Shown here: positions 18,401-53,051 of the stretch, piece after piece | Layout of the letters: every line of letters starts with the position of its first letter | Position numbering within the stretch: position 1 is the stretch's first letter | From: Nemertoderma westbladi | Taxonomy: Eukaryota; Animalia; Xenacoelomorpha | Reading direction: 5' to 3' | DNA: 54,975 bases | Assembly (NCBI GenBank): GCA_032718475.1 | Contig: JAUCBJ010007676.1 | Span: 1 to 54,975, forward strand | The notes under the pieces: model-generated | Told to the model about the DNA's origin: nothing | Seen by the model: only the letters and a program-made list of their open reading frames with translations | Databases searched by the model: none | Program-made: the position numbers and the translations under genes

Positions 18401-18779
18401 GCGCCTCATACGTGAATCATAAGCCTTACCGTCTTACCGTTGTGTTTAGTATAAGTCATATCTCTGTTTACCTAGATAGAGCGCCACGTCCTAAAGGAAC
18501 TGTTAATATTTCCCGAAAGTGAATAATATTGGTCAGAAATTATTTATTAACGATCAATCGAATAATACAGTAAGCTTACACTGCAATAAAAATCTAAGCC
18601 CTCCGAATCCAGTCTCCCGGGTATATCCAGCGGGTGAATGGACGCGCACTAGGCTGGCTTCGGCTAATGTTGTGTTTATTGGTATTAAATACTTGTCATA
18701 TGCTAAAGTCTATTTATAAACCAAAAGACATATAAATTTTGGCAGGTTAAACTGCTAAAGGTCTTCAAAAGCGCGTACA
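15480..18779 (+). repeat. 5' LTR, interrupted by a 2.1-kb insertion at 15569-17660
   Basis: 15480-15568 plus 17665-18779 align collinearly with 32016-33212. Confidence 0.95.
15569..17660. mobile_element. Non-autonomous DNA transposon (2092 bp) nested in the 5' LTR
   Basis: 12-bp TIR GGTCAATTCCAT/ATGGAATTGACC, ATAT on both sides; the empty site CTATATGTGTGC is visible in the 3' LTR; about 8 internal GTGTCGGACGTT motifs; no transposase ORF. Confidence 0.93.
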
Positions 18780-18845
18780 ATAACAGTTATCTTCTTTATT
18801 GCAGTAAGCAATAAAGTTGAAAGTACCGGTCGACCAGTAAACCTG

Positions 18846-19083
18846 AATCGGTACTGCTGTAGGTCCGTAGGCCCAACTGCCAGAACCGGTACTGCTGTAG
18901 GTCCGTAGGCCCAACTGCCAGAATCGGTACTGCTGTAGGTCCGTAGGCCCAACTGCCAGAATCGGTACTGCTGTAGGTCCGTAGGCCCAACTGCTTGAAC
19001 CGGTACTGCTGTAGGTCCGTAGGCCCAACTGCCAGAATCGGTACTGCTGTGGGTCTGTAGGCCCAACTTTCCTAACCGGTACT
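18846..19083. repeat. 38-bp tandem repeat (~6 copies) in the retroelement 5' UTR
   Basis: Unit CGGTACTGCTGTAGGTCCGTAGGCCCAACTGCCAGAAT. Confidence 0.92.
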
Positions 19084-19257
19084 TCCAGTATAAGTACATT
19101 AGTATTATTCGATTTTGATTATTGTATACTGGTAGGTCTTAGTACTTAATCAGGGAACGGCCGCCCTGGTTTTTTATTGAGATTTTACTTATTTCTGTCG
19201 GTTTTATTTACATGTAAGTTAATATTGAGCTGAAGACGTGTAAGTCTGCTCAGATTG

Positions 19258-19838
19258 TTCAGATAATTGTAGGCTGGACTGTTGTCTGACTGTTGTTGGG
19301 TCTGGAGAGATTACGGCGTGTGTAGAGTCTGTCCGATAAAGTGCCAGTTAGTAAGTTGGGGCATCTTGAGTTGTAAGGTCAACCCCCTCCTAAAGAATAA
19401 GTCGTACTACCGTGTTAGAACGCATACTAACTAACCATTTTGGAATCTGCATATACTGTAGTTTATTTAGGCTTGATAGTAGTCTGCCAGCGTTTTAGCC
19501 TGTGTTTGTTTGTGTGGTCTGTTCAGGTACCGTAATAGTTATTACTCAGATATTTTGTAGGCTGGATTGTTGTCTAGCTATTATTAGGTCTGGAGAGATT
19601 GCGGCGTGCGTAGAGTCTGTCCGATAAAGTGCCAGTTAGTAAGTTGGGGCATCTTGAGTTGTAAGGTCAACCCCCTCCTAAAGAATAAGTCGTACTACCG
19701 TGTTAGAACGCATACTAACTAACCATTTTGGAATCTGCACATACTGTAGTTTATTTAGGCTTGATGGTAGTTTGCCAGAGTTTGGTTTGTATTTTGTTTG
19801 AGTATTCTGTACGGGTAGCGTAATATTTATTATTCAGA
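19258..19838. repeat. About 288-bp direct duplication in the 5' UTR
   Basis: TAGAGTCTGTCCGATAAAGTGCC...GGAATCTGCA occurs at 19323 and 19611. Confidence 0.9.
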
Positions 19839-21124
19839 GTTTATGCGATTATTGGCAACATTCATGTCCCCAAGTTTATTCCTACAGTAATTGTGCTTGT
19901 TACACATACCGTTATAGTTAAATTAACCCCGGTACTACACGGGCTGCTTGGCGTAGGTAAAGACTGGTGACTTTGTGCTCCTGTCACTCCAGCAGATGCC
20001 GTGGTTCTTTTAACTGTTCAAGTATATTTAACTGCTAGTTATCTGTTTTTAATAAGTACTTGTACCTAATTTAGGGTTTGGTGTACAGTGCTTTCCGAGA
20101 GTAATTAGTGTGGGCAGTGTATTGTGTTGTAAAGTGGTTAATAGGCACGTTGGATCTGGTAGTCCGCGGTAATTAACTTCTAGGTAGGAACACTCCGTGA
20201 TACATAACGTAGTACCTATAGCGATACGGCTATAGGTCGTCAGACGGTGGTGTTTTCCTATCTGGACAGCGCAATATATTTACTACTACTTATTATTTAC
20301 CGTAGTACCCTGTCCGTTGTAATAACCAGAATTCTAACCCTTTGTTAGACTGGTTTGTAGTTTCCCTGTAAAATTACCCTAAAATTTCGTACATAATATT
20401 TTTTGTTGTGTTTAATTAGAGAATTAATCTCACCCGTATCGTAAGTAATTTGTAGTATTAAGTAACTTAGGTAAATTAGAATTATTTGTTTTAGTATCCA
20501 ACAAGTAGCACTTCACTGAGAGCGCACAGCTTCTGTGTAGTGACTCCCCCCAGAAATAATAACATTTATTTCAAATATTGACAAAACCCATTTTAAACGG
20601 GTATATATATATTATAAATCAACTCAAACGATTTATAAATAGTAGGCCTGCCATACAACAACTAGGTCTCAATATCAGTTGGACTACTGCTTAAATAACG
20701 GTAATAAAGTAAGTTAAAGTAACCAAGTAACCCTAAAATTTCAGAAATTCAACTATTCTAAAATAATTGACATACCGGTATTTACCATAGGCTTATTATA
20801 TTTATTTCTATAAATTTGGGCTGAAATCATACAGGTATTCTGTAATTAATTCTAGTTTATAATTATACTTATATATACTATAAGTGTAAGCTGCATACCG
20901 GTATTCACGATAGGCCTATTATATATTTATATATATTTGTGCTAAAATTATATACCGGTATTCTGTGACAAACCTAGTCTACCATACTTATATATACTAT
21001 AAGTGTATACCGGTATTCTAATATATTGTAATTAATTACCGGTACTAGGCCAACGGTCATACTGAATTACTAGACTTGCTTTAACTGTAACTATAGCAGT
21101 AAGCATTCAACTGTATAGCTAAGT

Positions 21125-24100
21125 ATGTCTGACACAAAGCAAAACCTGTCAGACAGTCTAATCGATACAACCATCTGTGACACAGATAGGAGTGTGGAGC
21201 GATTAAGAAAGGGGTTCAGCTCACCTCCTACTGAAAGAAAAGTCATCCCTCCAGTAGTAGTATCAAACCCTAGGCTAATCCAACACCGTAGGTCTATCAT
21301 CGGCACTCGGGCCCAAGTCAAACGGAACCAAGAAGCAGCTGTCCAACAGCAGCAACATCCTAGTCAAGAAACTCGTTCCCAGCGACCCGATAGCTCCAGT
21401 AGTTCGGATACTGTAGAGCTGACCCCCGAACGCGGAGTGAAGATGGCGGCTACAGCCTATTCGGATCCCCTTCTCACCCTTCCTGCTGCAGTACTAACTA
21501 CTATATTGATTGCGGTGGAGGAACACCAAGTCGATTGGGCGAGAAGTAAGCGAGCGACCCAAGATAGTTATGCGGGATACGCCAGGGAAGAATTGATGTC
21601 TATTGTCGAGTCACAATGGAACTTTCCCGGACCCGGACTCCCGTTAGATTTGTCCGAAGCTACTTGGGAAGACATACACAGGATGGGAGTGACTAAAGAT
21701 ACGATGGATCCAGCTGTTTGGAAGAGGTCAGCAGCAGGATATGTGCAGGGATTCTTCGGCTCCTTAGAGCGATTAGAAGAACAACTGTTTCGACAACCCC
21801 AAGGACCTCAAGAGCAGGAAGAGCTGCTATATCAAGTACGCAAAAGAACCCTACGCATTAGACTAATCCTATCAGCCTTTGAGGAAACTTCCAAAAGAAG
21901 ACAGGACACGTCGCTGCATGTTGCTGTCAAGACTTGGTTCCAGCGGGTAGGTCTCAAAGTACAAGAAACGGCCCAGTAGAAATCCCAGCTGGCTGAGCGA
22001 CCAACCTATGAAGAATCAACCGATGCCACCTTTTCTCAAGTGGAAAGCGAAGTGACCGCAGAGAGATCGCGAACGAGAGACGCCATAGACATCTATCTGT
22101 CAGACTATCAACGTTTCCTAGGTGATGAAGAGTTGAGGAGACGACTGGCTGGACTTCGCCCCAATAGTGAAGGAGCCAAGCTTGTGTTGGACTCAATCGA
22201 TGCGGAAATGTTAGCTGCAAACCAAGCTAAATTTGATGAAAAACTCCGCCTCGCTAGAGTCCAAGAAGAACAAGTAAAGAAAAAACGGATAGAGGACCGA
22301 AAGGCAGCAGCAGTAGCAGCGGCAATGGCAGAAGCAGAAGCGGAAAGAAAGGCGGCAAAGGCAGTGGCAGAAGCAGAACGGAGAGCGTCTGAGGAGACTA
22401 CCCAACTGGAGTTGGAAAATCTGCAAGAGACGCAAGACTGCATAAATAAACAGTTAACTGCTAGTCAAATGCAGATGATGAGTCGATCTACTCCCAAACG
22501 CCAAGGATACACATCATCGGAGGAAGGCGAGACCACCGATCCTGAAGGCGGAGGAAATAGATCTCGTCTAAGCAGGCGTAGAAAAACATCTCACCGTCAA
22601 AAATTGCCTGATTTGCCCCCAGCGGTTAGAAGACAACTAGCTAGCACAGACTTAGGTAGTACAGAACCCACAGACCAAATTATTAAGGTCAAAAGACTCC
22701 CTACGATAGTTGATGAGCCTGAAATAATTAGGCCTGTTGTTCCCAAAGCCACTCCTGTGCTAGAGACCCCTGTACTTCCAGAGCTTAACTCTAAATTCCC
22801 TCTACACAGTACTACACTGCCTGTACCCGGTAGAACATTCCATGCGAATATCCCTGTCCTGGACACTGAGAGAGAAATCAAAGATTTGTCTCCCATCGTC
22901 CCGCGTCGGCCCGCTACAATGTTGGCGACTCCCACTTTGGCGGTCGAGTGGGTAGAGGAGGGATGGCGGGGGATGAATCTCCTGCTCGGACAGATGCAGG
23001 AGACTGTCCACCAACTTAAGGGAACAGTAAGGGAAAGTAGGTTAGAATTGCAAGAAGTGCAGCAAAGCATCGCGCTAGAACGCGACAAATTAGTCAATAT
23101 ACAAAAGGGTATACCAATACCCCCAGTAACATTGTGTCAACCTGTTAGGTCTGAAGTATCACATGCGCAAGGTGTGGAGCCTACACGCATCTATACTGCT
23201 AGTGAAGTAGAAACTCCTATAGCAAACCCTATTAAGGGTGATTATAAACCTGTTGTTAATGATATTCCCTATAGACCTGATAATAATCCAAGAAATTCAT
23301 ATACCGATAATTCTATATTAAATAACACGATGGCCCAAGAAAGCTTTACGCGTCAGATGGCTAGAACAGAAGCCCGCCAAGCGGTCAAAGTGGGAGAGAT
23401 CGTCAAATTCAATGGAGATGAGATGAAATGGTTACCTTTCAATGAATATTACAAAGATAGCATACAGAACTCTGTACTATCTAACGGAGAGAAACTTAGA
23501 TTCCTCATCAAGTGCTTGGAAGGACCTCCCAAGTTAATGGCGTTAAAGTTTATTGGACATCCAGATGGATTAAGACAAGTTTGGGAGACATTAAACATCA
23601 GGTATGGTAACAAGGATAACATAGCAAAGTATTTGTATGCAAAATTAGTAGCCCCCCGAAACTTCCTTAGTAGCGGGATAATAGAGTTTTCCGATGAGAT
23701 TCAGGAGATCTGTAGACAATTGGACTGGTTAGGTAAGTCTCATGAATATCAGAGTTCCATGGTTATTGGAGCCGTAGTCTCTACTTTACCAAAGGGTGGA
23801 TTATGTACACGCTGGGATAAGAAAGTGTTGTATATGAATGAGCAGCAACGACGAGGCCCTACCATGGCTGATCTTATGTCCTTCTTAGATAGTGAAGTAA
23901 AACTACAACTCATAAAGCAGTCCAGAGAGAAAACATCGGAAAATAAGGTAAGTGAGAAACCCGTTTCTAGGAGAAGAGTAACACCAGTGTATTACACTGA
24001 TGACGGCGAAAGCCAAGCTTCTCAAGAAGAGGACAGTGGAAAAGACACTGACAGATTTTACTATGTTAACAAAACCTCAAAAGACGTAAGTAAATACAAG

Positions 24101-26210
24101 GCTCGAACCAACGATAGGAGAGAACAGGTTGCCAAGACTCCTCCTCAGTCTCCTAACAGAATGCACGGAAGAAAGCCCGAAGAAAGAACGAGAGTGCATC
24201 ACGTTACCCAAGGTAAAGTGAGTAACATCAAACCAAACTGTGCGCTGTGCGACAGGCCCCACCGTTTGAGTGCGTGTGCTGAATTCCTAAAGAAATCCCT
24301 TGTAAACAGACGTGAAGTCATGTGGGATAAGCGGTTATGCTATAATTGCCTCAGACCAGGACACCAACGGCGAACCTGTTACTCCAATGTAAAGTGTGCA
24401 AAGTGCGGTGCGAAACATCACATCTTGTTACACAATGGATTCGAACGAGACAACCCGAGTCAGGTAAGTGAGCCCGAACTACATGTCCAATTCAGTGATG
24501 TAAATGACACTGATCAGGAGTCTGAGATGGAAGGATTCTATACTGACGAATTCTCCGACGCCAACGAATCCTGTTACCTAATAAATACCGCAGTGTATCG
24601 AGCACTTACTTACGAAAAGGACACCGACAATGAGTTCCCCCCAACTACCTTTGACAGACAACCATCTTTCAAAGCTCCAACTTCCAACGTAGGAATCAGA
24701 GAATTTCCTGTAGTGCAGGTAAGAGTTCACGGTCCTAACAAAAGTTACATAGTGAACGCCCTCCTTGACTCCGACAGCACAGGAACATTCATCGATCAAG
24801 AACTAGCCGAAGATATCTTTGCTGGACAACCCAAATTCCAAACTAAGTTGAATATGTCCGGAATTATGCAGGTTTGGAACTCTACCATAACGGCAAATTA
24901 CTATGTAGGTGCGTTGTCCACCCCCCAGGATAAATTAGGAGCACAAAGTATAAGGTCAGTAAAAATGGTGGCTATAAAGAACTTCGCTACTACCCAAGTA
25001 GAACCTTATAACTGGGACGAGGACGAGAGCATCCAACAGCTTAAGATACCTCGATTCCCGACAGATTATCCTGGAGTGCAAATACTCATCAGCCAAAACG
25101 CGCATGAGGCGCTCGAGACATTGGAGAAACGGCCTGCTCAACCACAGTCACTACAAACCTATGCGGTAAGAACTAGAGTAGGTTGGTACTTTACTGGCCC
25201 TTCCCGCAGAACTCTCAAAGAGAGATTACCACAAGAAAGAATATACCAGGTAAATGATTGGGAAGTGGAGAGCAGTGAGGTGGACGAACTAACTGAGGGA
25301 ACACCATACTCCTCAGATAATGACGACATCTACCAACTCTTCGATGAAGAGAACACAATCGACCTACTTACAGAAAACAAAACTTGGAAAAACCAGGTGA
25401 ACCTATGTCAACTGATTCGCCCATCGGGACCCATTGATTACAATGACGAACTAAATGATGAGATAGAGCGCTACAATGCTAGAACTTGGGACGAACTCGC
25501 CGTACGATTCTTTACTCAAGAATTGGTAGAGCCCAATTCATACGATAAGGCCCTATCGATAGAAGAAGAAAGAGCCAAGCAAATCCAGGAAACAACTACA
25601 CGTTTTTTAAAAGATCAAGGTAGATATGAAATCGGCCTACCATTTCGAAAACGAGAACCTAGATTTATAAATAACCCTCCCTTGGCAGAGAAAAGAATCA
25701 CTCAATTACATCGACGCCTTACGGCTAATGCTTCAGCTAAAGAAATGTACCAAACTCAGTTGAAGAAATTTATTACAAAGGGATACGCGGAGCAAGTACC
25801 GGAAGGAACACCAGTGACTGAGAGAACGTATTACTTAACACATCATTACGTTCCCAAACCCGGTAAACCCCATGAAGTACGAGTCGTATTCGATGGCTCC
25901 ACTCTATATATGGGCCAATCCCTCAATTCCGAGTTGTTACCAGGACCCAACTTACTCCAATCTTTGTTGGGAATACTTTTAAGATTAAGACAATATTCCA
26001 TCGCGTTTGCCTCCGATATAGAAGGAATGTTCTTACAAGTCAATGCGCTGGATAGAGATAGAGACAGCCTAAGATTTCTGTGGTGGCCTGAAGGAGATCT
26101 CAACCAGAAACCGGTAAAGTACTGGATGACCATCCAGGCTTTTGGGATCATATCAAGCCCTTCCAACGCCTGCTCCATGGTGCGGACCACTGCGAATGAC
26201 AACCTTCTCA
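21125..26210 (+). pseudogene. BEL/Pao gag-protease-start of RT, one in-frame TAG at 21977-21979
   Basis: ORFs 21125-21979 and 22040-26293 are in the same frame with a single TAG between them. Capsid-like KFNGDEMKW...EKLRFLIKCLEG; triple knuckle CALC..PH....C / CYNC....H....C / CAKC...HH..LH; protease ALLDSDSTGTFI; RT start VRVVFDGS, DIEGMFLQV, LRFLWW. Confidence 0.92.
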
Positions 26211-29115
26211 AAAGAGGTGATAGACAACATCAAGCGCGATATATACATGGACGACAATTTAAAGTCCCTTCCATCAGTAGAAGAAGCCATTGATGTCGCG
26301 AAAGGAACGGTAGAGTGTTTGAAAAGAGGTGGATTTCGACTGACGAAATTCACCAGCAACTCCCGTGAGTTTCTGGAAGCGATACCGGTAGAAGACCGAG
26401 GAACGGAAGACCTAGACTTAATAAAAGACAATCTTCCAGAAACCAAGACGCTTGGCTTGAAGTGGGACACAGAAAGAGATATCCTGTTTTTTCAGCTAAA
26501 ACAGCGAGATAATCCAGTTCGGACCAAACGGATTTGTTTAAGTATCCTGAGTACTTACTTCGACCCATTGGGATTTATTAGCCCAGTTATATTGATTGCT
26601 CGGAGTTTAGTACAACAAATGTGGCTTGAAAACCACTCATGGGACGATCCACTTAAGGGAGAACTGTTAACGAGGTGGATGAAATGGGAAGATTCTCTGC
26701 CTGCCATCGAGAGCTTTGTAATTTCCCGTGCATATTTTGGTCATGTTCTCCCTACGTATTCCTATCAACTCCATGTGTTTGGAGACGCCAGCGACATGGG
26801 AATAGGTATAGTAGCATATCTGCGAGTCAAAACTCCGGATGGAATCAAAGTCGCCTTGGTTACCTCTAAGGCATTGATTAACAACAAGTTAAAGGTTCCT
26901 CGAGCGGAGTTAAAAGCAGCTTTATACGCTACAGCCATCGGCCAGAACGTAACAGAACAAATCGACTATCCACTGGAGAAAACTGTTTATTGGACCGACG
27001 CTTTACTTGTGTTGGAGTATATAACCAATGAAGTCTGTCAGTTCAGCGTTTTTGTTACTAACAGGGTAGCTATTATTCTTAGTCGCACAAAGATAGATCA
27101 ATGGAGACATTGCCCTGGTACGATTAATCCAGTCGATATTGCCTCCAGGGGAGCAACTCCACAGGAACTGATAGATACTCCAGACTGGTTGGGTGGACCC
27201 GACTTCCTGAGCAAGGAAGAGGATGAATGGCCTCCTCACCTTACTACGGCGGAGATTAGACAAGCCAAGGGAGTGGCGAAAGTCAAACCTAAAACCCGGG
27301 CGAGTAAATCGAAGTTATTTAAACCGACGATCGATCTATCTGTATTACATACTTCCGGAAACGATGCTGCGGATCCACAATCCCTCGCCACAAATAAGGC
27401 TGTCTTGGAAATTAGGGATAGAGATTGGAAATCTGGAATACCAGACGTCTCGCAAGGAATCTCACCCCTGCTGCAGAGAGCAATACATCACTACAGTTCC
27501 TGGAATCGGCTTTGTAAAGCCGTCACATATTTAAGGCGATGTTTGCATCATCACTACTCCAGGACGAAGACCATTAGTGATACCGCTCCATTGACATCTG
27601 CGCAAGTTCATGTTATTAAAAATTTACCCCAATATAAGACATCCGACCGGTTTCTAAAGGAGAAAATCAGTTACCAGGAGCATGAAGAAACCAATAAGCA
27701 GATACTGAGACTCCTGCAATGCTATGAGGATTCCGATAAGTATTTCCTGTTGTTGAGAAATCCGCAGATGCGCTTAAGGGATCGCTTCTCTAGCACAATG
27801 ATAGATGGGTTAATACGTGTTGGAGGAAGACTCACCAATGCACCATTATCCTTTGACACTAAATTCCCCATACTCATTAGAAATCTTGAAGTACAAATCA
27901 AGATGATTGTAGATGTTCACAGTAAACTTTATCATGCTGGTAGAGAACGAGTTCTTAGCGAAATCCGAACTCGCTATTATTTTTATAAACCCCGTAGAGC
28001 TCTGAACCAAGTTTTTAGGAACTGCATACCCTGTAGGAAAGCATTCAGTAGGCCTTTAACACAGCGAGAGGCAGAATTACCTAGGGAACGAGTAAGCTTC
28101 TATGAACAACCTTTAACCCTTATTTGGCCCTATTGAAGTATATCGTGCTAGGACCATAGTCAAGAGATGGTGTGTCATCTTCGTATGCATGACTTGTAGA
28201 GCCATCCATCTCGATATGGTGAACGATCTATCTACCAACAGCTTCGTCTTAAGTTTACGCCGACAGATCGCTCGCTTCGGGACTAGTAATACCATGAGAT
28301 CGGATAAGGGAACGAACTTCATTGGTGCCAACAACGAAATCCAGGCTTACGTGAAGGACTGGAACCAAAGACAGGTGGACGATCAGCTAAGGATAACAGC
28401 ATCTAGCTGGACCTTCAACGCCGCCGACGCCCCTTGGTGGGGAGGAAGTTGGGAGAGATTAATTAGAAGTATCAAGACCGCATTTCACTTTATAGTGCCA
28501 TGCCACGCGTATCTCACCGACAAACTTTTGCGGACGTTAATGGAGGAAATAGCTGCCTATCTCAACTAGAGACCGCTTATGCCAGTCTCATCGAGTCCCG
28601 ATTCCCTGGAAGCGCAAACACCCGCGCACTTCCTACTGAAGAAACCTGTAGCCATGCTCCAACGATCGGAGATTAACGATGGAGACGAATACTGCCGTCG
28701 AACTTGGCAACTTATGCAGTTGCTATCCCGTCGTTTCGCTGACCATTTCGAGAAACATTATCTGCCCACGTTACAACTTCGAACTAAGTGGTTTGCGCAG
28801 CTTGAAAACGTCAGCGCCGGAGATATGGTGCTTATTGTAGATTCAGAACTTCCACGTAAACGGTGGCAGACAGGTCGTATCATCGAGACTCACATCTCGG
28901 ATGATGGTTTAGTACGCTCGGTAGAACTCGTCGTCATGCGGCGTAACTTCAAGAAGCCAGGCATAATCTTTGAGACGCAACAGCTCAACCGCCCAGTTGG
29001 TCGTTTATGTTTACTGGAAAGAGACAGAGAACTCTCCGGAAACTATGGAAGACAAGACACTCTTCCCATGACCACCTCCCTAATTCCTCAAACATCTAGG
29101 GACTCCCCAACGTGA
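26205..29115 (+). pseudogene. BEL/Pao pol: RT (YMDD), RNase H, integrase; frameshifts near 26205 and 28120, stop at 28567
   Basis: IYMDD, LGLKW, FDPLG, LHVFGDAS, PRAEL, YWTD, W.HCPG..NP.D.ASRG, IRVGGRL, H....HAG...C..C, CMTCRAIHLD, SDKGTNF, APWWGGSWERLIRSIK, W..GRI...DGLVRSV. Confidence 0.93.
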
Positions 29116-29460
29116 TACGTCTGGAGTGGGTGCATGACTATATTATTCTATCTATTTTTATTATATTTTATATGCGAACGTTATTATGTACTTTATTATA
29201 ATCGTTTTATTTAATTTTATTTAGTAGAATGTTATTTTAGATTATTTAGTAGGTTAGTGCAATATATTAGTGTTTATTACGTAATTACACATAATATATT
29301 TAATATGACGGCGAGAAATAATTCTTCCTTTTTCCTTACTTTTTCCTTTGCGATATTGCTCTTCTACTTTATATTAAATAATACATATAGTAGCGTGATG
29401 TCCCTATAACAGTAGCGTAAAACGCAAATAAATCTGTTAAACCTTTTGACCATCTGTAAT

Positions 29461-29720
29461 TTTAGTCGATTAAGATATCGCGGCACCCACCGATATACTT
29501 GAAAGACAAATTCTAGAATCAGTGGTTAACGTCCCCAGACAAGTTCTGGAATAAATCGGTGCCTATCTTAAATATTAATTTAATATTTATTAAAATCTGT
29601 AAAATTCAGATCCTTTAAAATTTCTAGTCAATTAAGATATCGCAGCGCTTACCGATACTCTTAAAAGACAATTTTATAGAATTAAGGATCCTAGGTCCCC
29701 AGACATGCTCTGGAATAAAA
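29461..29720. repeat. Diverged direct duplication (period about 162 bp) between pol and ORF3
   Basis: TAGTC(G/A)ATTAAGATATCGC...GTCCCCAGACA...CTGGAATAAA occurs twice. Confidence 0.8.
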
Positions 29721-30454
29721 TTGTGTCAATTTTACCATCAAATAATAAAATTCACGGGAATAAATTTAAATTCATATCTTAAATGAATTTCATAAATTGT
29801 CATTTTGTGCAATTTATAACATTCCCAAAATTCCATTAATTAATAGATCATGGGAGCGGAGATTCATCCTATTGAGTGTATTAGAGTGCGAGAATCTCCG
29901 ACATATAGGCAATAGCCGATAAAATTAATAAAATCATGTATAAAGAGGATATTGACAATTAAAGAATTACTATTAAATAGCATTCCAGATCTGTATGCAT
30001 GAGAATTACCCTAATTCTACCGCTAGCTTTCCATAATGTCACCATAGCAACACCCACGCTAGAATTAGAAGCAAGTTAAAAGAACAATAGACGGCACTGA
30101 CTAACGGACAAATGGCCTGTATGTGTACAATTGGTGACAGTTGTGTTGGAATTTGTGCGTTTATAGGTGAATGTTACTGCTAAAGTATGTTTACAGTAGC
30201 TAGTCGCAATTGTAAAAGTAGCCCAACTCTCCTATAGAAAGAACCTAAAGTGGATCCAAGCCTTTGGGACGGACAGTGGAGTGACTTGTGCCGGTTATCG
30301 TTGTCGTGCTGTTGCTACATGTTGGCGTAAACACCGCGACGACGGTACATCGGCGCTGAGAATCCCACTGTCCGGGGGCAACGAGAGGTAGGCAGCGACG
30401 CCCGCTAGCCTAAACATAAACTCATTTCGATATTAATAAACTCAGATAGCATAT

Positions 30455-31938
30455 ATGACGGAGTTGATAGAAGATGATCTTGGTATCAGGGAGCGATATA
30501 CTCTACCTTTACAAGCATTTGTGGATAGCTTAATACGCGGTGAAGCCGATCCAACCATTACGGAGGACGATGGTCGTTATATTGAACCGCCGATGTCCCA
30601 AGAGCAACTTACGCGTGAATTGGACTATCGAAAATTCACCGCTCGCTATACGCATCGTAATGGTACGTATATGGACTTCCTAACTACCGGCCATCCTATC
30701 GATTTACATGATACGGACGATGTAGACAACGAAAGGGAAATGGTTCTATTTAAATATCATACCCAGCGGAGTCGTAACGATAAACCGAGAATAGATCACG
30801 AAAATTCTATTCGTAACAGACTGGAAAGAGAAAACGTTGAAGAACCGGATAAACGCATCGACTTCAACGACTAACTAGAATTTTTGAGAGAAACCTATCT
30901 CAACATCGCCAGTCAGCAGAACCTAGAGACTCGATATCCTCAAGGTATACATCATGACCCTATTGTAGAACTCAAACGGCTCTATTTCACTATGATGTAT
31001 CTTACCGCCGATCGTCCACTACCTTTTATCCCGTATAGTTTTGAACAAATGGAAGAATATTGCAAAACTGGAGAACAATCACCCGCGTTTCCTTGTTTTA
31101 TTGCGCATATTGCAGACTCAATAACTTGCATATTTTTGCAGTTTGCCCTCAATTTATGACTCAATGTCACCATTGTCAACTAAAGGGACACGCCAGTTTT
31201 GATTGCCCTTTTAATCACGATTTGGAAAGCGTAGATGAAATGATCACACTACGTTACATCAGAGCTTGGGAAGCGAACGCTGATTTACATTGTGATTCGC
31301 GCCATCGCTATTATCCTGGACGCGCTTACGAAGGAGTTTATGCGTTCCATCCTTATCTATTCGCTTCTGTCGAACAGAAATCACGCATATCGAGTTACGA
31401 ACTACTGAAGCGCGTCGGAGAATGTATTTCAACCAAATTCGTACGCAAATTTCTCAGGAGTGTTAATCCTAGCGACCTTCATTCCTATAACCTAATCAAT
31501 TTTATCCATCAGGATCCGGACTATGGAGACTTATTTGTTAACTCACACCCCGAGTTACAGGAAGTATATCGACGGCCTTACGAATACCGAGCCCGCGAAC
31601 GCTAGTTAGAAAGAACCATTAAACCCAGGAAGTTTCTGACTGCCTATGGTCCACCCACGGCTCTCGTTCAGACCACTCGTAAAGGACCCGTAAGAGCGGC
31701 CGTCCTAAAACGCGCTCTCAAGGCCGTTAGACCCCTCTCCCCCGACGTTGATGTCAATCAACCCGGCACTTCGACTGGCGGATACACCGACCATAATCCT
31801 ACACCCTCTGATGCAATCATATTGCACCCTTCACCCAGGAGTTATAGCCCTCCTTGTAAAGTGGCTCGCCCCAAAGAGAAAAAGACTCTGGCCAGCTTTA
31901 AAAAACTGCGTAAACGCCGTCCACGCAAGAAAGAGTAA
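30455..31938 (+). pseudogene. Accessory ORF3 of the BEL/Pao element: ~490-aa protein with twin zinc knuckles and a basic C-terminal tail
   Basis: ORFs 30455-30874 and 30884-31159 share a frame (one TAA between them); a frameshift near 31095 joins 31060-31605; after one TAG the frame stays open to TAA 31938. Motifs CAYCRLNNLHIFAVC-x6-CHHCQLKGHASFDC and KKLRKRRPRKK. Confidence 0.75.
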
Positions 31939-32015
31939 CCGTTTAGAGTATTTACGTATATTAGAAACTGTGATTTTGTATATTTATAGACTTGAATCCC
32001 ATTTTCTGGGAGCGG

Positions 32016-33212
32016 TGTAAAAGCTTTTGCGGATATAATCAGTCCCCTTGCCCGCAAAGTACCGTGTGGGTGTTTTAACGGACATAAAAGTTGTTTTTCT
32101 ATATGTGTGCTTTGGCGGACATGGCAAGACACAAAACCCACAATGCGTCAAATCCTCTAGCACAGTGTAGCCTTGATGATTCAGATTACGACATCTAACA
32201 GCTGGTTGCTGGCATGGAAACGGCCGTTGGACACATGGTTCTTTGTTCAGCTTAACAGCCAATCAGAGTGATTTTTAGACGTGGAGATATTCTACAGATC
32301 ATACTAGGCGTGTTCAGTCTTACGGTTTCAGTGTTACTGTTTTGTTGTTTCTATCTGGGCCAAGAAGTTAATTTGGAGTCAATTTGTTTCAGACTTTAGA
32401 AGAAACATTAGTAGGCTTAGATTATAGAACGTATAACTGTTATCAGTTCAATCAGTCTCACAGCGGTACAGTCTTACCGTGTTATAGTTTTCATATCATA
32501 TCTTAACCCACCGTCTTAATGCTATTTACTGTTGTCATTATTTGTATCAGTTGGTTGAATATTATTACTTGGAGAACATCGATAAATAACCCAAATTTCC
32601 CAATTTTCTTGATACACTACAGGTTAGAGAGACAGGTTACATATAGCGATTGCGACTTATATTATCGTGGTTTGTAGTGAATTTAATGCTATTTGATAGG
32701 CACTACATGAGTCAATTGCTGTTCTCTTAATGTATGATAAAATTCATTGACGGTCGGCAGATTAGTGTGCAGTATTGTGCGTTACCGGTAGTGTGCATGA
32801 TTGTGGCTGATAACTGAGCATTTCCTAAAGAATGCGCCTCATACGTGAATCATAAGCCTTACCGTCTTACCGTTGTGTTTAGTATAAGTCATATCTCTGT
32901 TTACCTAGATAGAGCGCCACGTCCTAAAGGAACTGTTAATATTTCCCGAAAGTGAATAATATTGGTCAGAAATTATTTATTAACGATCAATCGAATAATA
33001 CAGTAAGCTTACACTGCAATAAAAATCTAAGCCCTCCGAATCCAGTCTCCCGGGTATATCCAGCGGGTGAATGGACGCGCACTAGGCTGGCTTCGGCTAA
33101 TGTTGTGTTTATTGGTATTAAATACTTGTCATATGCTAAAGTATATTTATAAACCAAAAGATATATAAATTTTGGCAGGTTAAACTGCTAAAGGTCTTCA
33201 AAAGCGCGTACA
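32016..33212 (+). repeat. 3' LTR (1197 bp)
   Basis: TGTAAAAGC...GCGCGTACA; matches the reconstructed 5' LTR with few substitutions and indels. Confidence 0.96.
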
Positions 33213-43900: not shown

Positions 43901-45215
43901 CACGTTCCTCCCATACACATTCACGTTCCTCCCATTCACATTCACGTTCCTCCCATCCACATTCACGTTCCTCCCATACACATTCACGCTCCTCTCATTC
44001 ACATTCACGCTCCTCCCATACACATTCACGCTCCTCCCATTCACATTCACGCTCCTCCCATTCACATTCACGTTCCTTCCATTCACATTCACGCTCCTCC
44101 CATTCACGTTCACGCTCCTCCCATTCACATTCACGCTCCTCCCATTCACATTCACGCTCCTCCCATTCACATTCACGCTCCTCCCATTCACGTTCACGCT
44201 CCTCCCCTTCACATTCTCGTTCCTCCCATTCACATTCACGCTCCTCCCATTCACGTTCACGCTCCTCCTATTCACGTTCACGCTCCTCCCTTTCACGTTC
44301 ACGCTCCTCCCATTTACGTTTACGCTCCTCCCATTCACATTCACGCTCCTCCCATTCACGTTCACGCTCCTCCCATTCACGTTCACGCTCCTCCCATTCA
44401 CATTCACGCTCCTCCCATTCACGTTCACGCTCCTCCCATTCACGTTCACGCTCCTCCCATTCACATTCACGTTCCTCCCATTCACATTCACGCTCCTCCC
44501 ATTCACGTTCACGCTCCTCCCATTCACGTTCACGCTCCTCCCATTCACGTTCACGCTCCTCCCATTCACATTCACGCTCCTCCCATTCACGTTCACGCTC
44601 CACCCATTCACGTTCACGCTCCTCCCATTCACATTCACGTTCCTCCCATTCACATTCACGCTCCTCCCATTCACGTTCACGCTCCTCCCATTCACGTTCA
44701 CGCTCCTCCCATTCACATTCACGCTCCTCTCATTCACGTTCACGCTCCTCCCATTCACATTCACGTTCCTCCCATTCACATTCATGCTCCTCCCATTTAC
44801 GTTCACGCTCCTCCCATTCACGTTTACGCTCCCCCAATTCACGTTCACGCTCCTCCCATTCACGTTCACGCTCCTCCCATTCACATTCACGTTCCTCCCA
44901 TTCACATTCACGCTCCTCCCATTCACGTTCACGCTCCTCCCATTCACATTCACGTTCCTCCCATTCACATTTACGCTCTTCTCATTCACGTTCACGCTCC
45001 TTCCATTCACGTTCACGCTCCTCCCATTCACGTTCACGCTCCTCCCATTCACATTCACGCTCTTCCCATTCACATTCACGTTCCTCCCATTCACGTTCAC
45101 GTTCCTCCCATTCACATTCACGCTCCTCCCATTCACGTTCACGCTCCTCCCATTCACATTTACGCTCCTTCCATTCACGTTCACGCTCCTTCCATTCACG
45201 TTCACATTCCTCCCA
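40960..45215. repeat. 21-bp minisatellite (~200 copies), continuing at 53052-53107 beyond the inserted LTR element
   Basis: Unit CCCATTCAC(A/G)TTCACG(C/T)TCCT; the same unit resumes after the 3' LTR. Confidence 0.98.
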
Positions 45216-45753
45216 TGTTAGCTTATCCAATTCCGCTAACACAAACCCATAGAGTGAGCCGATAAGCAATATTGGGGGCCACGAGGTTGGTTACCAAATC
45301 TCGTGTCACCCCAACAAAGTGGGAAGGAGAAACGCACAATAAGGTTCAGGGGCCAAACCCCTAACAGAGAGAGAACAGCAGGAGTGAAGGGAAACACTCC
45401 AAAGGGTGCCAACAGTGATATTAGCCAATGGGGGGACAGCATCGACTAGGTACTGTAACAAGGCCAAACCGTGCAATATATTACCGGTCGATGCAATCAG
45501 TTATTCAGTTTACTCAGTCAGCTCAGTAGGGTGGAACGGTGACTTCTATCACCGTCCGCTACCGCCATCACGTGTAATACTTCTGTACTTATCTACCGGT
45601 AACCAGTTATCCATGTCTGCTATATCAACTATATTATACCTTTCTACATATTACCGAACATCAGAACTCTAAACAAACCTTTTCATATACACGGCGGGGA
45701 CGCGTAGATAGAAAACCCAAACGGATAAACCGGGATCCGTATATCCTGTCACA
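45216..45753 (+). repeat. 5' LTR (538 bp)
   Basis: Aligns with 52514-53051; contains CCAAT (~45425), a TATA-like AATATATTA (~45475) and TCAGT initiator-like motifs (~45497-45527). Confidence 0.96.
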
Positions 45754-45921
45754 GTGATAGAATCCTAGCAGCTACCCTCACAGTGATAGAATCCTAGCAG
45801 CTACCCTAACAGTGATAGAACTCCAGCTGCAACTGCCAACCACAGTGATAGAATCAAACTGCCCGAGCTGACTGCAACAGTGATAGAACTCCAGCTGCGA
45901 CTGCCAACCACAGTGATAGAA
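45751..45921 (+). repeat. Six tandem copies of the LTR-end/PBS junction motif ACAGTGATAGAA
   Basis: Copies at 45751, 45780, 45809, 45842, 45877 and 45910. Confidence 0.9.
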
Positions 45922-45975: not shown

Positions 45976-48891
45976 ATGAGTAGAGGAGGAGAGACGACAT
46001 CGCCGCGGACCCCGGACGGAGACCTAACAATCCGTGAGGCCGCGACGAGACGATACGGACCCACGACACCGGTCGATGCTACGTCGACCAGGTCGACGCC
46101 GGTTGACGCCACGTCAATAACGAGGAACCCGGCGAACCAAGATGTGGGGGGTCATCTACGAGGAGAGAGTGAGTCGAGTAGAGGAGAGAGCAAGACGGGG
46201 GAGGAGGGAGACGAGTCGACACACGACGGCGGTCGACGTGCCGGTGTCGCCGGCCAGCGAGAGGCCGAAGGCGACGGACGGCCCACCGGAACGGCAACGG
46301 TGGAGCCGACGGTACGACGCCAAACCCAGAGGGAGAGAGGAGATGTCGACGACGAGGACGTCGGGGTCGTCCGGCTCCGACGAGCCTACGCCGCAACCCG
46401 GGAACAACTGAAGGAAGCTAGAGGAGGGGCTGATATAGACCAGGTGAAGTTGAGGAGACGACTAGGTGAGTCGAACAGATACTTTGATTACCTAGTGCGT
46501 TCTGGGCAGGGAGAACTGGCCGAGAAGAGAGCGAGAGGGGTTGCCTTTGAACTGTTTGGGCTATGGGAACGTAGGGGTATGGGGCCTGGTGTAGTGTACA
46601 TAGGGCCATACTTAGTCGATGCCAGGGAAGTTAAGTTAGTGGGTTGGGCGGGACAGCACGAGGGCGAATCCGAGGTTAGCTCCGAGGATTCGGTCTTGTC
46701 GGTCAGCGAGAACCCCGGAAAGCGGGGGAAAGTTAGTAGGACGGAGGGGCGGCGGGAGTCCGTCGCAACCGATAAGTCTGCTACATCCTCCGCAAAAGAA
46801 AGACGGGTGCGAGAGAGTGAACGCATGGTATATAAATTAAAAATGGAAGAATTAGAGTGGCGACTGAGGGGAAGGAAGGAACAAGAGAGTGAACGCGAAG
46901 AGCGTGAGGCAAGAGAACAGAGCGTGCGGTACACGTACAGTACGTACAGTAACCGTACGGGCGGGGTAGTAGTAGTATGTTAGGAAATATTGGTATTAAT
47001 AGTACCGTAGTAAATAACCCTAATCCCTTTATTACAGGAAATATTTTACCCGGTAGTAGTAATTTAAGTTTAAATTCAAATAATAATATTAATTCAAATA
47101 TTCAGAATAATTCAAATAATTCGAATAATAATTTAAATTTTGAAAATAATAATAATTCTAACTTAAATAATTTAAATAATAATCCCGTTTCAAATTTTAA
47201 TAATTTAATTGATTTAACAAATAATATTGGGAATGGTGCTATTAATGTGAACGCGTCAGACGTGTATAGCCCAGCAGACGGCGGCCTGGTAGGCCACGTA
47301 GTTGGTAGGCAGGGGGTAGCGTGGTTGAGCCAACCCGAGGTGGGCCTGGAAGGCCACGCAGTAGTAGAGAGAGAGGCGTGGGTGAATAGACCCAGCCGTA
47401 GTAGAGACAGTGTGTCGACTAGAGAGGGGTGTAGAAGTGTAGTAAGAGATAGTGAAGTTAGATGTGGCGGGTGGGGGGGGGGGGGGCTACGGGCGCCCCA
47501 CCACATAAAATTAGCGGCGAGAGAGGGGGGGGGGGCAGAGAATGCCCCACAAGAGGGGTGTAGAAGTGTAGTAAGAGGTAGTGAAGTTAGAAGTGGCGGG
47601 TGGGGGGGGGGGGGGGGGGCTACGGGCGCCCCACCACAGAAGATTAGTGGCGAGAGAAGGGGGGTAGAGAGTGTCCGACAAGAGGGACGCAGAAGTGAAG
47701 TAAGAGATAGTAAAGTTAGAAGTGGCGGGTGGGGGGGGGGGGGGGGGCTACGGGCACCCCACCGCGAGGGATTAGTAGCGAGAGAGGGGGGCAGAGAGTG
47801 TCCCACAGGCGTCGGCAGATAATGCGCGGGCCGAATTAGGTAAACCGCAACACCCGGCGATGGAGAATAATAGGGGGATTGCGAGTATCTCCAGCGGCGT
47901 GCGATCGAGCAGAGAGAGACAGGTTGACGTCGCGAGAGGGCGGGCGACGGAGCGTCGAGCCCAGTCAGAAGAGAGAAGATTAGTAGAGTTTAACAGAGAG
48001 TTCGAAGATAGAGGAAGGGAAGATAGTAGAAGAGTCGTTGCTAGGAGCAACCGGAGAGCGAGGACGGATAGTGAGCCGTCGATAGTAGAGATGGAGTTAG
48101 GGAGTCAGTGGGGTCGAACTTCGGGAGATTGCCGTCGCCCCGGAGAAACGCACCGCACGCCAAGAGAGGGGTACAGGACGTACCGATACGAAGAAGAGAA
48201 CAGGAGTGGGGATCGAAGAGAAGCTTCCCGACGGGTTATAGCTGCCGATCGAGAGTATGGTAGTCGCGGGAGATTCGAGATTCGCGAAGAATAAACTTCG
48301 ATTCGGAAGGGCACATGCAGACTGCAGGACATACTGTAGGCCTTACTGCACATACTATTATAGGCCATGCTGGGAGAGATAGCGTAGGCAATAGGGTAGC
48401 GCGGACGACGGGATTAAACCCGGAAGTCGCGGAGTACATACAGGTAGGTAGGCAAGAAGTGAATAGGCCTATATCGGTACCGGTACAGCAGCATGACTAT
48501 AATTTCCAGGGACACAACATATATCCAGGGGAGGGGGGAATTATTGCAGATAGATGCATGGGCCCCAATATATTAACATCAACCCCAGTACCAAACATAC
48601 CGGTGGGAGGGGGACAGGGTGACATTCCCCCATCACAATATCAACAATATACCCCAATAGGAGCGAGAACATCGAACCCCTTGGACGAGAACAGTTCATG
48701 CGACACAGAAATATGGAGGGGGCCGTTACACCCCCAATGATATATCCGACGCAAAGGACAACAACAGATAGGACGGACGGACCGCACCCAACAGGAGAAA
48801 CTATACAACATCCATCAAACCCATTAGAAGCGCAAGCGATGGGAATAGCCACATTGATCGATGCGTTAAAAACTAGGATCGAGTTACACCT
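45976..48891 (+). pseudogene. N-terminal gag region of the 45216-53051 element, broken by stops and frameshifts, with an Asn-rich tract and ~135-bp G-rich triplication
   Basis: Consecutive + strand ORFs 45880-46983, 46977-47822, 47860-48294, 48315-48740 and 48698-48970 lead into the capsid domain; SATSS...E/R-rich coiled coil typical of BEL gag. Confidence 0.7.
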
Positions 48892-51123
48892 GTGGAACCA
48901 TTTAAATTCGATGGGAGTAGGCCGGAAGAATATCTACAGTTTCGGCGCATGTATAGTAACGAAATATTAAGTAAGAACTTGACGCAGGCGGAGTGCCTAA
49001 AATATCTGCAAGTATATACTGGAGGCCCAGCATACGACATCGTGAGGCAATACCAGGGCATCGAGGGCGGCTTCACGACAGCATGGCGGGCGCTAGATAG
49101 GGAATACGGGCACCCGGCCAAGATCATCCGGCAAACCCTGAGAGGCATAACATCGGATGGCCTACAGGACAATCCCGTTAGCATAAGGACCTTTGCAAAC
49201 AAGGTCGAGAAGGCGTTAATCGTGTTAAAGACGCTAGACGCACCATACGAACTCAACGCGTCTAACAACATCACCACGATAGCGCAGGCACTGCCGATCT
49301 GGTTACGAAGGAAGTGGAGGAAGATAGCCTTCTCCACACGGGAGAAGAAGGGTGCGGAACCGGGCTTAGAAGAGATGTCGAGCTTCCTCAACTATGAAGC
49401 CGAATTAATAACAGACCCAGTCTATAGCGATGATAGTCTGGGGACAAGCCATAAGCCCAAACACGATCCTGCAGATCCATTCCCGAGAGTAGGACAATCA
49501 CTACCACGTGCGGCCACACAGGGGACTGCTAGTCCACGGTTAGCTGGTAGTAGGGCCACACCATGGCGGGGACAGAAAGAAAATAACACCATAAATAAAC
49601 ATAATTCCAATGTACCCAGTAGGCCGAATACAGACAACCAAAACTCTAAATCGATACATATAAACCTAGGCGCGATACGTGAGGGACTATACAGGGAACG
49701 CTATAATCCGGGATTCGAATGTCAATTACATCGGGACGGAACACATAAGACCAGGAGTTGTAAGCACTGGCAAGCGTTGCCCAAACAAGATCGTGTAGCC
49801 TACACAGACGCGAACGGACTATGTCATCGATGTGAGGTAGAAGGACACAGGTCCGGAGAGTGTAGAGAAACAGCAGCAAGAGAGGAGGAGACTGGAGGCC
49901 AAACAGCAGCTAGAAGCACTACAGAAGAGAAGAAGAAGAGAAAAGTACTACTCGGGGTAGTACCAGTGAAGATATCAGGAGAGAGCGGTCGATCAGTAAC
50001 GACATTAATGCTGGTCGACAGCGGAGCAGCCTTCACACAGGTGGAGAACTGGGTGGCCGAAGAGATAGGGCTAAAGACGAGGCTGAACAGAATGGCGGTA
50101 ACTACCGTCTCGAGTAAAGATGAGGTCCTGGAGACGAGGACGGGGCGGTGCAGGATAGCAGCGATTGCACCGGGATGCGGCTATGGGGCGACGATTGACC
50201 CCATCCATGTCATCGAATCGATAAACATCAACGCCAGGCGACCAACCAACATTGAGGTCGAGCAGTATAGATTCCTGAACGGTATCGATTTCTCAATACC
50301 AAAGGTGGACATTAGGAAGGTGTCCATTATAGTAGGAATGGACTGCCCGACGGCCCATGAGAGGATGAAGACGGTCTTCGGCGAAGACAGGCAGCGGGAC
50401 CCGACGGCAATCCTCACGCCGTTCGGATGGACGCTTAGCGGCCCAGTTAAAACCAACATCCCATGCAGTGTGACAGAGACATCTGGGTGCATGATACCAG
50501 GCACCGAAGACACAGAGGAAGTAGAGGAGAAACAAGAGATAGTAGAGCCAGATAGGGAGGTGACAGTAAGAAAGTGGGCAGAGGAGAGTAGGTTTCCCAA
50601 CAAGCATCGGTATGGAGATGGAGCGGAGCGGACGGCGAGGTGTCCGGAGGACAACACTCCAGAGGAGTGTCTGGAGGAATGTCCAGAGGAGTGTCCGGAA
50701 GAGACGCCGGTCCGGTTTGGAGGCATACTGACAAGGGGGAAGTTGAGAAGGAAGGCAGGATGGAAAGGGATAGGACTACTATTGTACCTTCTGTTCTGCC
50801 TGTTCTTTCACTTTCTATTCATTCTGCCGGTGGGAGACAACAAGGAGAGAAGTGGCATTTTGATGCCAGGAGATGAGCTAGTTAAGAAGGCGGCGGAGAG
50901 ACCCGATTTCAGGGTGGCAGAAGAGGGAGAACCAATTCCTGGTGAGATGGAATTGGCGAAGAGAGTGCGGCGAATCCTACAGGACCTACAAGAGCAGCAG
51001 TGGAGAGTGCCTGTTGGAAGAATCGCCCTAGTTAGGAGGTTTAGTCGTCCAATATTTTGGACTGAGGGGGTGGGAATGAGGGCGAGACACCCTTCCCACA
51101 CTAATAATTATTTAATTAATTAA
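48892..51123 (+). CDS. BEL/Pao gag capsid, zinc knuckles and aspartic protease, with a divergent C-terminal tail
   Basis: PFKFDGSRPEEYLQF...CLKYLQVYTGGPA...AWRALDREYG; CQLH...H....C; LCHRC....H....C; LVDSGAAFT; IIVGMDCP; PTAILTPFGWTLSGP. Confidence 0.88.
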   Translation: MEPFKFDGSRPEEYLQFRRMYSNEILSKNLTQAECLKYLQVYTGGPAYDIVRQYQGIEGGFTTAWRALDREYGHPAKIIRQTLRGITSDGLQDNPVSIRTFANKVEKALIVLKTLDAPYELNASNNITTIAQALPIWLRRKWRKIAFSTREKKGAEPGLEEMSSFLNYEAELITDPVYSDDSLGTSHKPKHDPADPFPRVGQSLPRAATQGTASPRLAGSRATPWRGQKENNTINKHNSNVPSRPNTDNQNSKSIHINLGAIREGLYRERYNPGFECQLHRDGTHKTRSCKHWQALPKQDRVAYTDANGLCHRCEVEGHRSGECRETAAREEETGGQTAARSTTEEKKKRKVLLGVVPVKISGESGRSVTTLMLVDSGAAFTQVENWVAEEIGLKTRLNRMAVTTVSSKDEVLETRTGRCRIAAIAPGCGYGATIDPIHVIESININARRPTNIEVEQYRFLNGIDFSIPKVDIRKVSIIVGMDCPTAHERMKTVFGEDRQRDPTAILTPFGWTLSGPVKTNIPCSVTETSGCMIPGTEDTEEVEEKQEIVEPDREVTVRKWAEESRFPNKHRYGDGAERTARCPEDNTPEECLEECPEECPEETPVRFGGILTRGKLRRKAGWKGIGLLLYLLFCLFFHFLFILPVGDNKERSGILMPGDELVKKAAERPDFRVAEEGEPIPGEMELAKRVRRILQDLQEQQWRVPVGRIALVRRFSRPIFWTEGVGMRARHPSHTNNYLIN

Positions 51124-52035: not shown

Positions 52036-52513
52036 AAGAGTTGGTAAGAGTTAGTAGACTTAGCAGAGAGTAGAGTTAGTAGTTAGTAGTTAGATAGTTA
52101 GAGTTAGTAAGTTAGATAAGGTAGATAGTATGATAGCACAGGGGTAGCATTAGAGGTCAGGGCCTTAGAGAGTGGCAGAGAGTAGAGAGGAGATAGTGAG
52201 AGGAGCTGTTGGCGAGAGAGTTAGAGTGCGATTCAGGTGTGGGGAGAGGGTAAGAGCGAGTTGAGTAAGAGAGCGGAGTTAGAGTGGTGAGAGTGTTGGG
52301 GAAACAAAAATTGTGTGAGAGAAGCGCACGATCGGCCCGACACGAGATGCCAGAGGGTAGTGACATCATACCCATAGGGAGCGGCCTGGAAAGCCGGCTC
52401 CGAGAAAAAAATAATCCCACCCCACACCCGATACTAGATCGAGTTCCAGCGGAATTGAAGCGCACTTTTTGGTTGATGCTATCTTCTTACCGGGAAGATA
52501 GCATGGGGGGGAG

Positions 52514-53051
52514 TGTTAGCTTATCCAATTCCGCTAACACAAACCCATAGAGTGAGCCGATAAGCAATATTGGGGGCCACGAGGTTGGTTACCCAATCTT
52601 GTGTCACCCCAACAAAGTGGGAAGGAAAAACGCACAATAAGGGTCAGGGGCCAAACCCCTAACAGAGAGAGAACAGCAGGAGTGAAGGGAAACACTCCAA
52701 AGGGTGCCAACACGGATATTAGCCAATGGGGGGACAGCATCGACTAGGTACTGTAACAAGGCCAAACCGTGCAATATATTACCGGTCGATGCAATCAGTT
52801 ATTCAGTTTACTCAGTCAGCTCAGTAGGGTGGAACGGTGACTTCTATCACCGTCCGCTACCGCCATCACGTGTAATACTTCTGTACTTATCTACCGGTAA
52901 CCAGTTATCCATGTCTGCTATATCAACTATATTATACCTTTCTACATATTACCGAACATCAGAACTCTAAACGAACCTTTTCATATACACGGCGGGGACG
53001 CGTAGATAGAAAACCCAAACGGATAAACCGGGATCCGTAGATCCCGTCACA
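52514..53051 (+). repeat. 3' LTR (538 bp)
   Basis: TGTTAGC...CCCGTCACA followed by TSD TCCCA. Confidence 0.96.

Follow-up and report, generated by a model that had tools for sequence, protein, structure and literature searches.

Self-priming of reverse transcription has been proven only for Tf1 of yeast and is predicted in some gypsy and copia lineages. The accessible parts of the Tf1 literature set out the mechanism (PMC7175516, PMC4600332, 10.1101/2022.12.06.519325), place the RNase H cut between bases 11 and 12 (PMC7175516) and give the primer-binding site (PBS) as starting with ATAAC (PMC11042837). As far as those parts go, Tf1, Tf2, Tj1 and the Tf1/sushi group share with the elements described here a PBS that follows the LTR and complements about 9-13 nt of the element's own LTR, as well as the absence of a tRNA site; the Tf1/sushi elements are Ty3/gypsy chromoviruses, whereas our two elements, E1 and E2, belong to BEL/Pao and reside in an animal host. 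Self-priming is also predicted for the TAR/Houba/Osr-1 copia elements and Tcn1 (plants) in the accessible text of PMC6317226, which uses the rule that the 5' LTR complements at least 10 nt starting 0-5 nt after the LTR; these elements belong to other superfamilies and hosts than E1 and E2. The fungal GalEa copia elements (Conserved Hairpin Site), as presented in the available portion of PMC5445492, resemble E1 in lacking a tRNA PBS and in carrying a short palindrome after the LTR. They have, however, a hairpin in the leader and no LTR complement found there, whereas in E1 and E2 the complement lies within the LTR.

For BEL/Pao itself, the ICTV profile of the Belpaoviridae calls replication poorly understood and names host-tRNA priming from a PBS of 18 nt that fits host tRNA-Arg or -Gly (PMC8742986). 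Our elements share with that profile LTRs of 0.2-1.2 kb, a polypurine tract (PPT), a DUF1759 Gag (E1 and E2) and an animal host, and E1 also has the order Gag-protease-RT-RNase H-integrase. Unlike the profile, neither element carries a TGG site, which occurs in only 1 of 12 surveyed families. We found no paper on BEL/Pao self-priming in a search that left subscription journals, Repbase, GyDB and supplements outside, and it is not reported in the accessible text of PMC3601003, PMC8220671, PMC5445492, PMC5443660, PMC554778 and PMC3118150. Within that text, PMC554778 mentions neither PBS nor tRNA, and PMC3118150 mentions no primer, PBS, tRNA or intron.

Two BEL/Pao elements in the window

The window, i.e., the whole stretch of 54,975 nucleotides analysed here, contains at 45216-53051 (+ strand) the gag-protease-only BEL/Pao element E2, recognized by its LTR pair and Pfam matches. 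Self-BLAST and LTR-LTR comparison delimit a 538-bp 5' LTR with TGT...ACA ends (45216..45753, +) and a 538-bp 3' LTR (52514..53051, +), and the two copies differ by 9 substitutions. The element is flanked by a 5-bp target-site duplication, TCCCA (left copy 45211..45215, +; right copy 53052-53056), and was inserted into the end of a satellite whose 21-bp unit recurs about 200 times (40834-45215 and 53052-53103). Directly before the 3' LTR lies the polypurine tract GGGGGGGAG (52505..52513, +), which sets + as the sense strand of E2.

After a leader of 222 nt, the first ORF of E2 opens with the ATG at 45976 (45976..46983, +) and has no Pfam match; the reading frames between it and 48877 are broken. 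Gag, with DUF1759 and Cys-His boxes, and an aspartic protease follow at 48877..51123 (+), as seen by Pfam and translation. The DUF1759 match (E 5e-11) is above the Pfam cut-off; the protease matches are under it, and the aspartic protease motif is visible in the translation. Pfam detected no RT, RNase H or integrase in E2, and nothing of pol lies 3' of the protease. E2 has the TG...CA LTRs, target-site duplication, PPT, Pao-type Gag and aspartic protease of BEL/Pao elements and lacks their RT-RNase H-integrase order, whereas E1 has all three domains, frameshifted. E2 is a non-autonomous BEL/Pao derivative. Its Gag-protease shares 19-25% identity with the surveyed families, and our search found no longer relatives of it, which is weak evidence. 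The 3' untranslated region (51191-52130) is long, purine-rich and built of repeats, with one 20-nt unit in many copies, and occupies the place of pol.

The neighboring element E1 (15480..33212, +), identified by self-BLAST and Pfam, is a gag-pol element with frameshifts and an LTR of 1197 bp (32016-33212). Its 5' LTR is interrupted by a 2.1-kb insert (15569-17660), which bears terminal inverted repeats of 11 bp and what seems to be a 4-bp ATAT duplication and looks like a non-autonomous DNA transposon. Because this insert splits the 5' LTR, E1 starts at 15480 and not near 17661. Pfam identified Pao-type RNase H and integrase domains and a DUF1759 Gag in E1, and PF05380 in 59 of 59 E1 Pol homologues; membership of the Tf1/sushi lineage was rejected, the Pfam matches being to Pao-specific families. 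DNA similarity between E1 and E2 is limited to one 16-nt match, and their Gag proteins are about 24% identical. Between integrase and PPT, E1 carries about 2.7 kb (29300-31940) with extra open frames, possibly an accessory gene, and no Pfam match was obtained for the part tested (31045-31605).

Complementarity between LTR and leader

The first-pass annotation had placed a 9-mer, and not TGG, after the 5' LTR of E2 and its reverse complement inside the LTR, and both proved correct by position. The candidate primer-binding position GTGATAGAA (45754..45762, +) is flush with the 5' LTR end, and its reverse complement TTCTATCAC, the candidate 3' end of a self-primer, occupies 45544..45552 (+), with a second copy in the 3' LTR (52842-52850). 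TTCTATCAC has the polarity of a primer, its 3' base facing the first leader base, and the cut is predicted between 45552 and 45553 (AC|C), a point separated by 201 nt from the end of the LTR. No TGG directly follows the E2 5' LTR, and neither element has a tRNA-type 18-nt PBS, the first TGG lying 184 nt into the leader of E2 and 271 nt into that of E1; Rfam families and tRNA genes were not found in the window. E2 accordingly combines the Tf1-type features of a PBS complementary to its own LTR, primer polarity and an absent tRNA site. The same match length was reached at offset 0 by 12 of 5000 dinucleotide-shuffled LTRs and by 38 of 5000 when offsets 0-3 were admitted; used as pseudo-PBS, 122 of 46933 positions in the window match the E2 LTR as well. 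A wider search that allowed offsets 0-6 and splice junctions gave 40 of 2000 shuffles (p 0.02). Against chance, the 9-mer match alone constitutes modest evidence, and it is the shortest among the 18 sequences compared, the others reaching 10-15 bp. A splice-built primer was rejected for both window elements, as no GT/GC-AG junction lengthens either match.

That a second BEL element shows the same arrangement in other letters was upheld. In E1, the candidate primer-binding position ATAACAGTTAT (18780..18790, +), flush with the LTR end and near-palindromic, faces the candidate primer ATAACTGTTAT (18000..18010, +; 3' LTR copy 32433-32443), an 11-nt match at offset 0 that only 4 of 5000 shuffles equalled. 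The primer lies 769 nt from the LTR end. According to the accessible text of PMC11042837, the PBS of Tf1 opens with the same five letters as that of E1. Further into the E1 leader, 18795-18809 pairs over 11 perfect bases with the LTR stretch 18570-18600 (about -17.5 kcal/mol with extension). This stretch contains the only AATAAA of E1, and the pairing could mask the polyA signal, an effect confined to the 5' LTR.

Upstream of the E2 primer, a motif scan located AATATATTA (45475, +), which resembles a TATA box, and TCAGT, which resembles an initiator, at four sites (45497, 45505, 45514 and 45523, +). They had been reported upstream of the hairpin described below and are indeed present, as motifs. 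Transcription of E2 is predicted to start at about 45499-45525, about 19-45 nt upstream of the 9-mer.

The E2 leader contains ACA+GTGATAGAA six times within its 222 nt, with five further copies at 45783..45921 (+; 9-mers at 45783, 45812, 45845, 45880, and 45913). Columns -3 to +9 are invariant among the six copies and column +10 is variable, i.e., the invariant block stops exactly at base 9, where the LTR complement stops; the six copies represent about four kinds of unit. In copy 4, the tail GAGCTGACTG (45865..45874, +) is a perfect 10-nt complement of LTR positions 45515-45524, upstream of the primer. Its extended duplex with 45507-45552 reaches -38.8 kcal/mol (p 0.001 from 2000 tail shuffles, copy 4 being one of six copies tested), and the other five copies give p 0.05-0.75, with 0.245 for the first. 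The tail fits a transcript start upstream of 45515 and a primer of more than 9 bases. Extended pairing 5' of the primer was rejected as a general feature, with 0 of 18 sequences under p 0.05. The six ACA+9-mer copies, one of them with a tail that complements the LTR upstream of the primer, are newly found here.

Candidate own-LTR primers in related families

To sample relatives, metagenome contigs were scanned with an alignment based on E1 Pol, and the best 80 of 548 BEL loci were kept and grouped into 58 families at 85% identity, a set biased to relatives of E1 and no sample of all BEL/Pao. In 12 families, the LTR end was fixed by comparison of the 5' and 3' LTRs before complements were sought; the 46 families without such an end were excluded. 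Among the 12, the weaker ends are those of F10 and F12, which stop at a contig end, and of F7, which rests on a 72% match; the LTRs of F5 and F11 end in ATA, and the end of F11 was set by eye.

A survey of elements without TGG for such complements had been suggested, and its outcome supports priming from the element's own LTR. One of the 12 families carries a TGG site, and its own-LTR match of 4 nt amounts to none. Nine of the 11 others have an own-LTR complement of 10-13 nt at offsets 0-5, and for none of them did more than 8 of 2000 shuffled leaders do as well. The remaining two, F7 and F12, showed no match at the LTR end first assigned; 11- and 12-nt matches at another ACA were found afterwards (blind scan, post hoc). 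Control targets, reversed only or complemented only, gave 4-9 nt, and LTR-PBS pairs mismatched between families reached 10 nt in 10 of 182 cases, mostly in families with similar PBS letters.

The own-LTR match is unbroken in only two of the nine families, and in the other seven it forms only across GT(A/G)AG...AG junctions, with predicted introns of 71-366 nt. Because they exist only across splice junctions, these seven matches can work only in RNA. The primer is split by an LTR intron in 7 of 11 non-TGG relatives and in neither E2 nor E1. By the rule given in the accessible text of PMC6317226, the 9 nt of E2 are one short, whereas E1 and the nine relatives satisfy it, in seven relatives only once the RNA is spliced; the rule would therefore miss these seven. 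The locus L014, an intron-less close sister of L025, carries the same 11 letters unbroken, which would be expected if spliced RNA had been copied back and suggests such an event. L014 on the one hand and L015, L018, and L025 on the other are close sisters without and with a 168-nt LTR intron.

Among 48 families with sufficient upstream sequence, a blind scan for spliced matches was positive in 14, compared with 2 for reversed-only and 4 for complement-only decoy targets. In families without an independently fixed LTR end, it returned further matches of 10-15 nt, seven spliced and one unbroken (L012, L019, L054, L031, L042, L045, L068, and L078), which we regard as secondary support only. The spacer between LTR end and PBS is 0-5 nt in the relatives and 5 nt in the tRNA-type family, and the primer lies 46-203 nt from the LTR end in the relatives, a range that includes the distance in E2. 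In all nine families, the predicted primer ends at A-Y|S (AC|C six times, unforced), as it does in E2 and in E1 (AT|C), against a background of 395 of 7619 LTR positions. This shared end may be a hint of RNase H cleavage. Since its PBS starts with ATAAC (accessible text of PMC11042837), the primer of Tf1 also ends in A-Y.

A quick RT/RNase H tree of 77 rows, with P0047 and E2 not included, is compatible with one or several origins of the signature and places E1 on a long branch. Since no position for E2 within the surveyed families could be established and E1 sits on this long branch, the class evidence bears on them by analogy. The genome contigs yielded 6 BEL loci, of which 3 were examined for LTRs and one (L082) gave a usable LTR pair, with a 9-nt match only and a poorly defined LTR end. 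These BEL/Pao contigs (L081-L086) sit inside six prokaryote genome bins and are most likely animal DNA carried into them. No BEL locus was detected in the viral contigs scanned.

The E2 hairpin, the proposed priming route and its alternatives

The primer 3' end in E2 is covered by a perfect 7-bp hairpin, ACGGTGA-CTTCTA-TCACCGT (45536..45555, +; -8.8 kcal/mol), and the earlier statement that the complement of the leader 9-mer lies in such a hairpin was confirmed. It is the sole perfect stem of at least 7 bp in the E2 LTR; shuffled LTRs contained one anywhere in 141 of 1000 cases and over the place of the 9-mer in 12 of 1000. The 5' arm ACGGTGA is identical in 6 of 7 positions to the junction of LTR end and PBS, ACAGTGA (45751-45757), and its pairing continues past the predicted cut, a point at which the genuine PBS duplex contains a C-A mismatch. 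In local folds of 18 sequences, a strong hairpin over the primer appeared only in E2 (z -3.8), whereas the other 17 ranged from -1.0 to +1.2, including E1, which has none comparable (z -1.0). The hairpin is thus a local PBS look-alike, private to E2 among the 18. A conserved hairpin over the primer was accordingly rejected, 17 of 18 sequences being without a strong one.

The first-pass annotation had suggested a shared, tRNA-independent mechanism in which the hairpin opens to create the primer. The LTR-derived primer is supported by the survey, with nine of the 11 families positive and the TGG family negative; the hairpin-opening step is not supported, since a strong hairpin exists in only one of 18 sequences and reduces the predicted primer-PBS pairing. 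Because it is private to E2 and competes with that pairing, the hairpin is not the common mechanism. As modelled, it is most likely a local decoy to be displaced, outside the shared mechanism, and forms a predicted obstacle or switch peculiar to E2.

A second look-alike of the PBS, GATAGAA (45707..45713, +), captures the primer in the minimum-energy fold. Beside the LTR end lies a further hairpin (45731..45748, +), probably U5-IR-like, which is a perfect 7-bp stem in the 3' LTR (53029-53046) and is weakened by two differences in the 5' copy. The predicted probability of primer-PBS pairing in E2 is 0.01; forcing it costs 3.4 kcal/mol (6.5-8.3 in longer windows, 2.7 for copy 4). In the relatives, this probability is at least 0.75 in seven of nine families, 0.48 in F3, and 0.00 in F11, and it is 0.00 in E1. 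The whole-region fold of 45507-45830 is about as stable as its shuffles (z -0.24). When the E2 pairing is forced, stems become possible on both sides of the duplex, as a three-duplex "pretzel" like that of Tf1 would need, but this fold costs 3.4-8.3 kcal/mol.

Taken by position and complementarity, the first nine leader bases of E2 are probably a Tf1-like self-primer binding site, served by an internal, cut primer and no tRNA. Because the non-TGG families match their own LTRs with family-specific letters, it is likely that this BEL/Pao group initiates copying from RNA of its own instead of a host tRNA. The case from sequence for self-priming is strong at the class level; for the E2 9-mer, it appears good by analogy and thin on its own. 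The E2 transcript would start at an initiator-like motif near 45499-45525 and fold back so that 45544-45552 could pair with 45754-45762, the nucleocapsid domain probably helping to displace the decoys. RT/RNase H, presumably cutting after 45552 as in Tf1, would free the 3' end. Because this E2 copy has only gag and protease, Pol would have to come from an autonomous partner, in the particle. A longer 5' fragment would supply the primer as its 3' end, predicted to lie 20-45 nt inside the transcript, unlike the primer of Tf1, which comprises bases 1-11 in the accessible text. RT would then copy 201 nt to the cut and transfer to the 3' LTR copy. Through copying of the primer in plus-strand synthesis, PBS and LTR would stay matched, and the six leader copies of E2 could have arisen in the same way. 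In intron-bearing families, the intron would be kept, since this portion of the LTR derives from the RNA 3' end, and it would be lost when the 3' copy is also spliced, as may have happened in L014.

Three other readings have to be weighed, each of them improbable to a different degree. The LTR-leader pairing may be real in RNA yet structural or regulatory, acting in packaging, dimerisation, polyadenylation or translation control, with another primer. Pairing of this non-priming kind does exist in E1, in the 11 nt over the AATAAA stretch. A pure structural helix, however, would not need paired leader bases that always start 0-5 nt after the LTR end, primer polarity and primer ends that share A-Y|S; in addition, the tRNA site is absent and the TGG family lacks the pairing, and we consider this reading unlikely. 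Rather less credible is that a host RNA, be it a piece of tRNA or another small RNA, has the complement of GTGATAGAA at its end and acts as the primer, with the LTR match due to chance; we regard this as very unlikely. Three surveyed families share one PBS start, which we take to resemble the tRNA T-loop. Half-tRNA primers without TGG are known in copia elements, according to the accessible text of PMC6317226, but the PBS letters vary widely and follow the LTR of the respective family, extensions peculiar to single families included, and the best match of the E2 9-mer to 13 foreign LTRs is 7 nt.

The E2 9-mer may instead consist of DNA-level GATA-factor sites, six of them arrayed as an enhancer in the leader and a single inverted one within the LTR, with the match partly due to chance and another primer in use. 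The 9-mer includes TGATAG, which we take to fit the GATA-factor motif WGATAR. This GATA-like hexamer is present in both 9-mer partners and counts against priming in E2, because it makes a chance match easier and the six copies explicable. There are six sites in the 222-nt leader against 3.0 per kb across the window, the hexamer occurs within the first 20 leader bases of E1 and E2 and in 0 of 16 relatives, and the E2 hairpin doubles as a DNA palindrome. The invariant block of 12 nt (ACA and nine bases) is, however, twice the motif and ends with the complement, the first copy directly adjoins the end of the LTR, and the splice-junction matches of the relatives cannot be DNA sites. We judge this reading quite unlikely as a replacement for self-priming, and GATA-site and priming roles are compatible with each other.

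A bolder version of the self-priming model, which we offer tentatively and consider doubtful as a whole, would be that in much of animal BEL/Pao, tRNA priming has given way to an internal self-primer that is cut at A-Y|S. In most families, this primer would be built by splicing an LTR intron, which would arm only the 5' copy, while the intron-less E2 would use its PBS-mimic hairpin as a safety catch, offset the short 9-bp duplex by six PBS copies and record the copying of a long 5' primer fragment in one of them. Compared with Tf1 as the accessible papers describe it, the differences, known here from sequence alone, are that most relatives have an intron-split primer and that E2 has a decoy hairpin, six PBS copies and no RT. 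Among the members seen, E2 pairs most weakly; it is of value as an example of a form that lacks the intron and carries a decoy hairpin and an array of PBS copies. If self-priming holds, it would be common in a third LTR superfamily and in animals, with the primer inside the transcript and often spliced, and the start of reverse transcription would be tied to host splicing. BEL/Pao would presumably also be freed from host tRNAs and from control by tRNA fragments, and the failure of PBS finders on BEL/Pao elements would be explained.

Elsewhere in the window, 4312-7119 holds an open frame of 935 residues with RT and a C-terminal restriction-like endonuclease pattern, which we take to resemble a CRE-type non-LTR retrotransposon. 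A 57-bp satellite of about 39 copies spans 35012-37221. A frame with a fibrinogen C-terminal domain, a piece of an animal host gene, lies at 11858-12466 and shows at most 55% identity among the 120 of 403 matches listed, which come from several invertebrate phyla.
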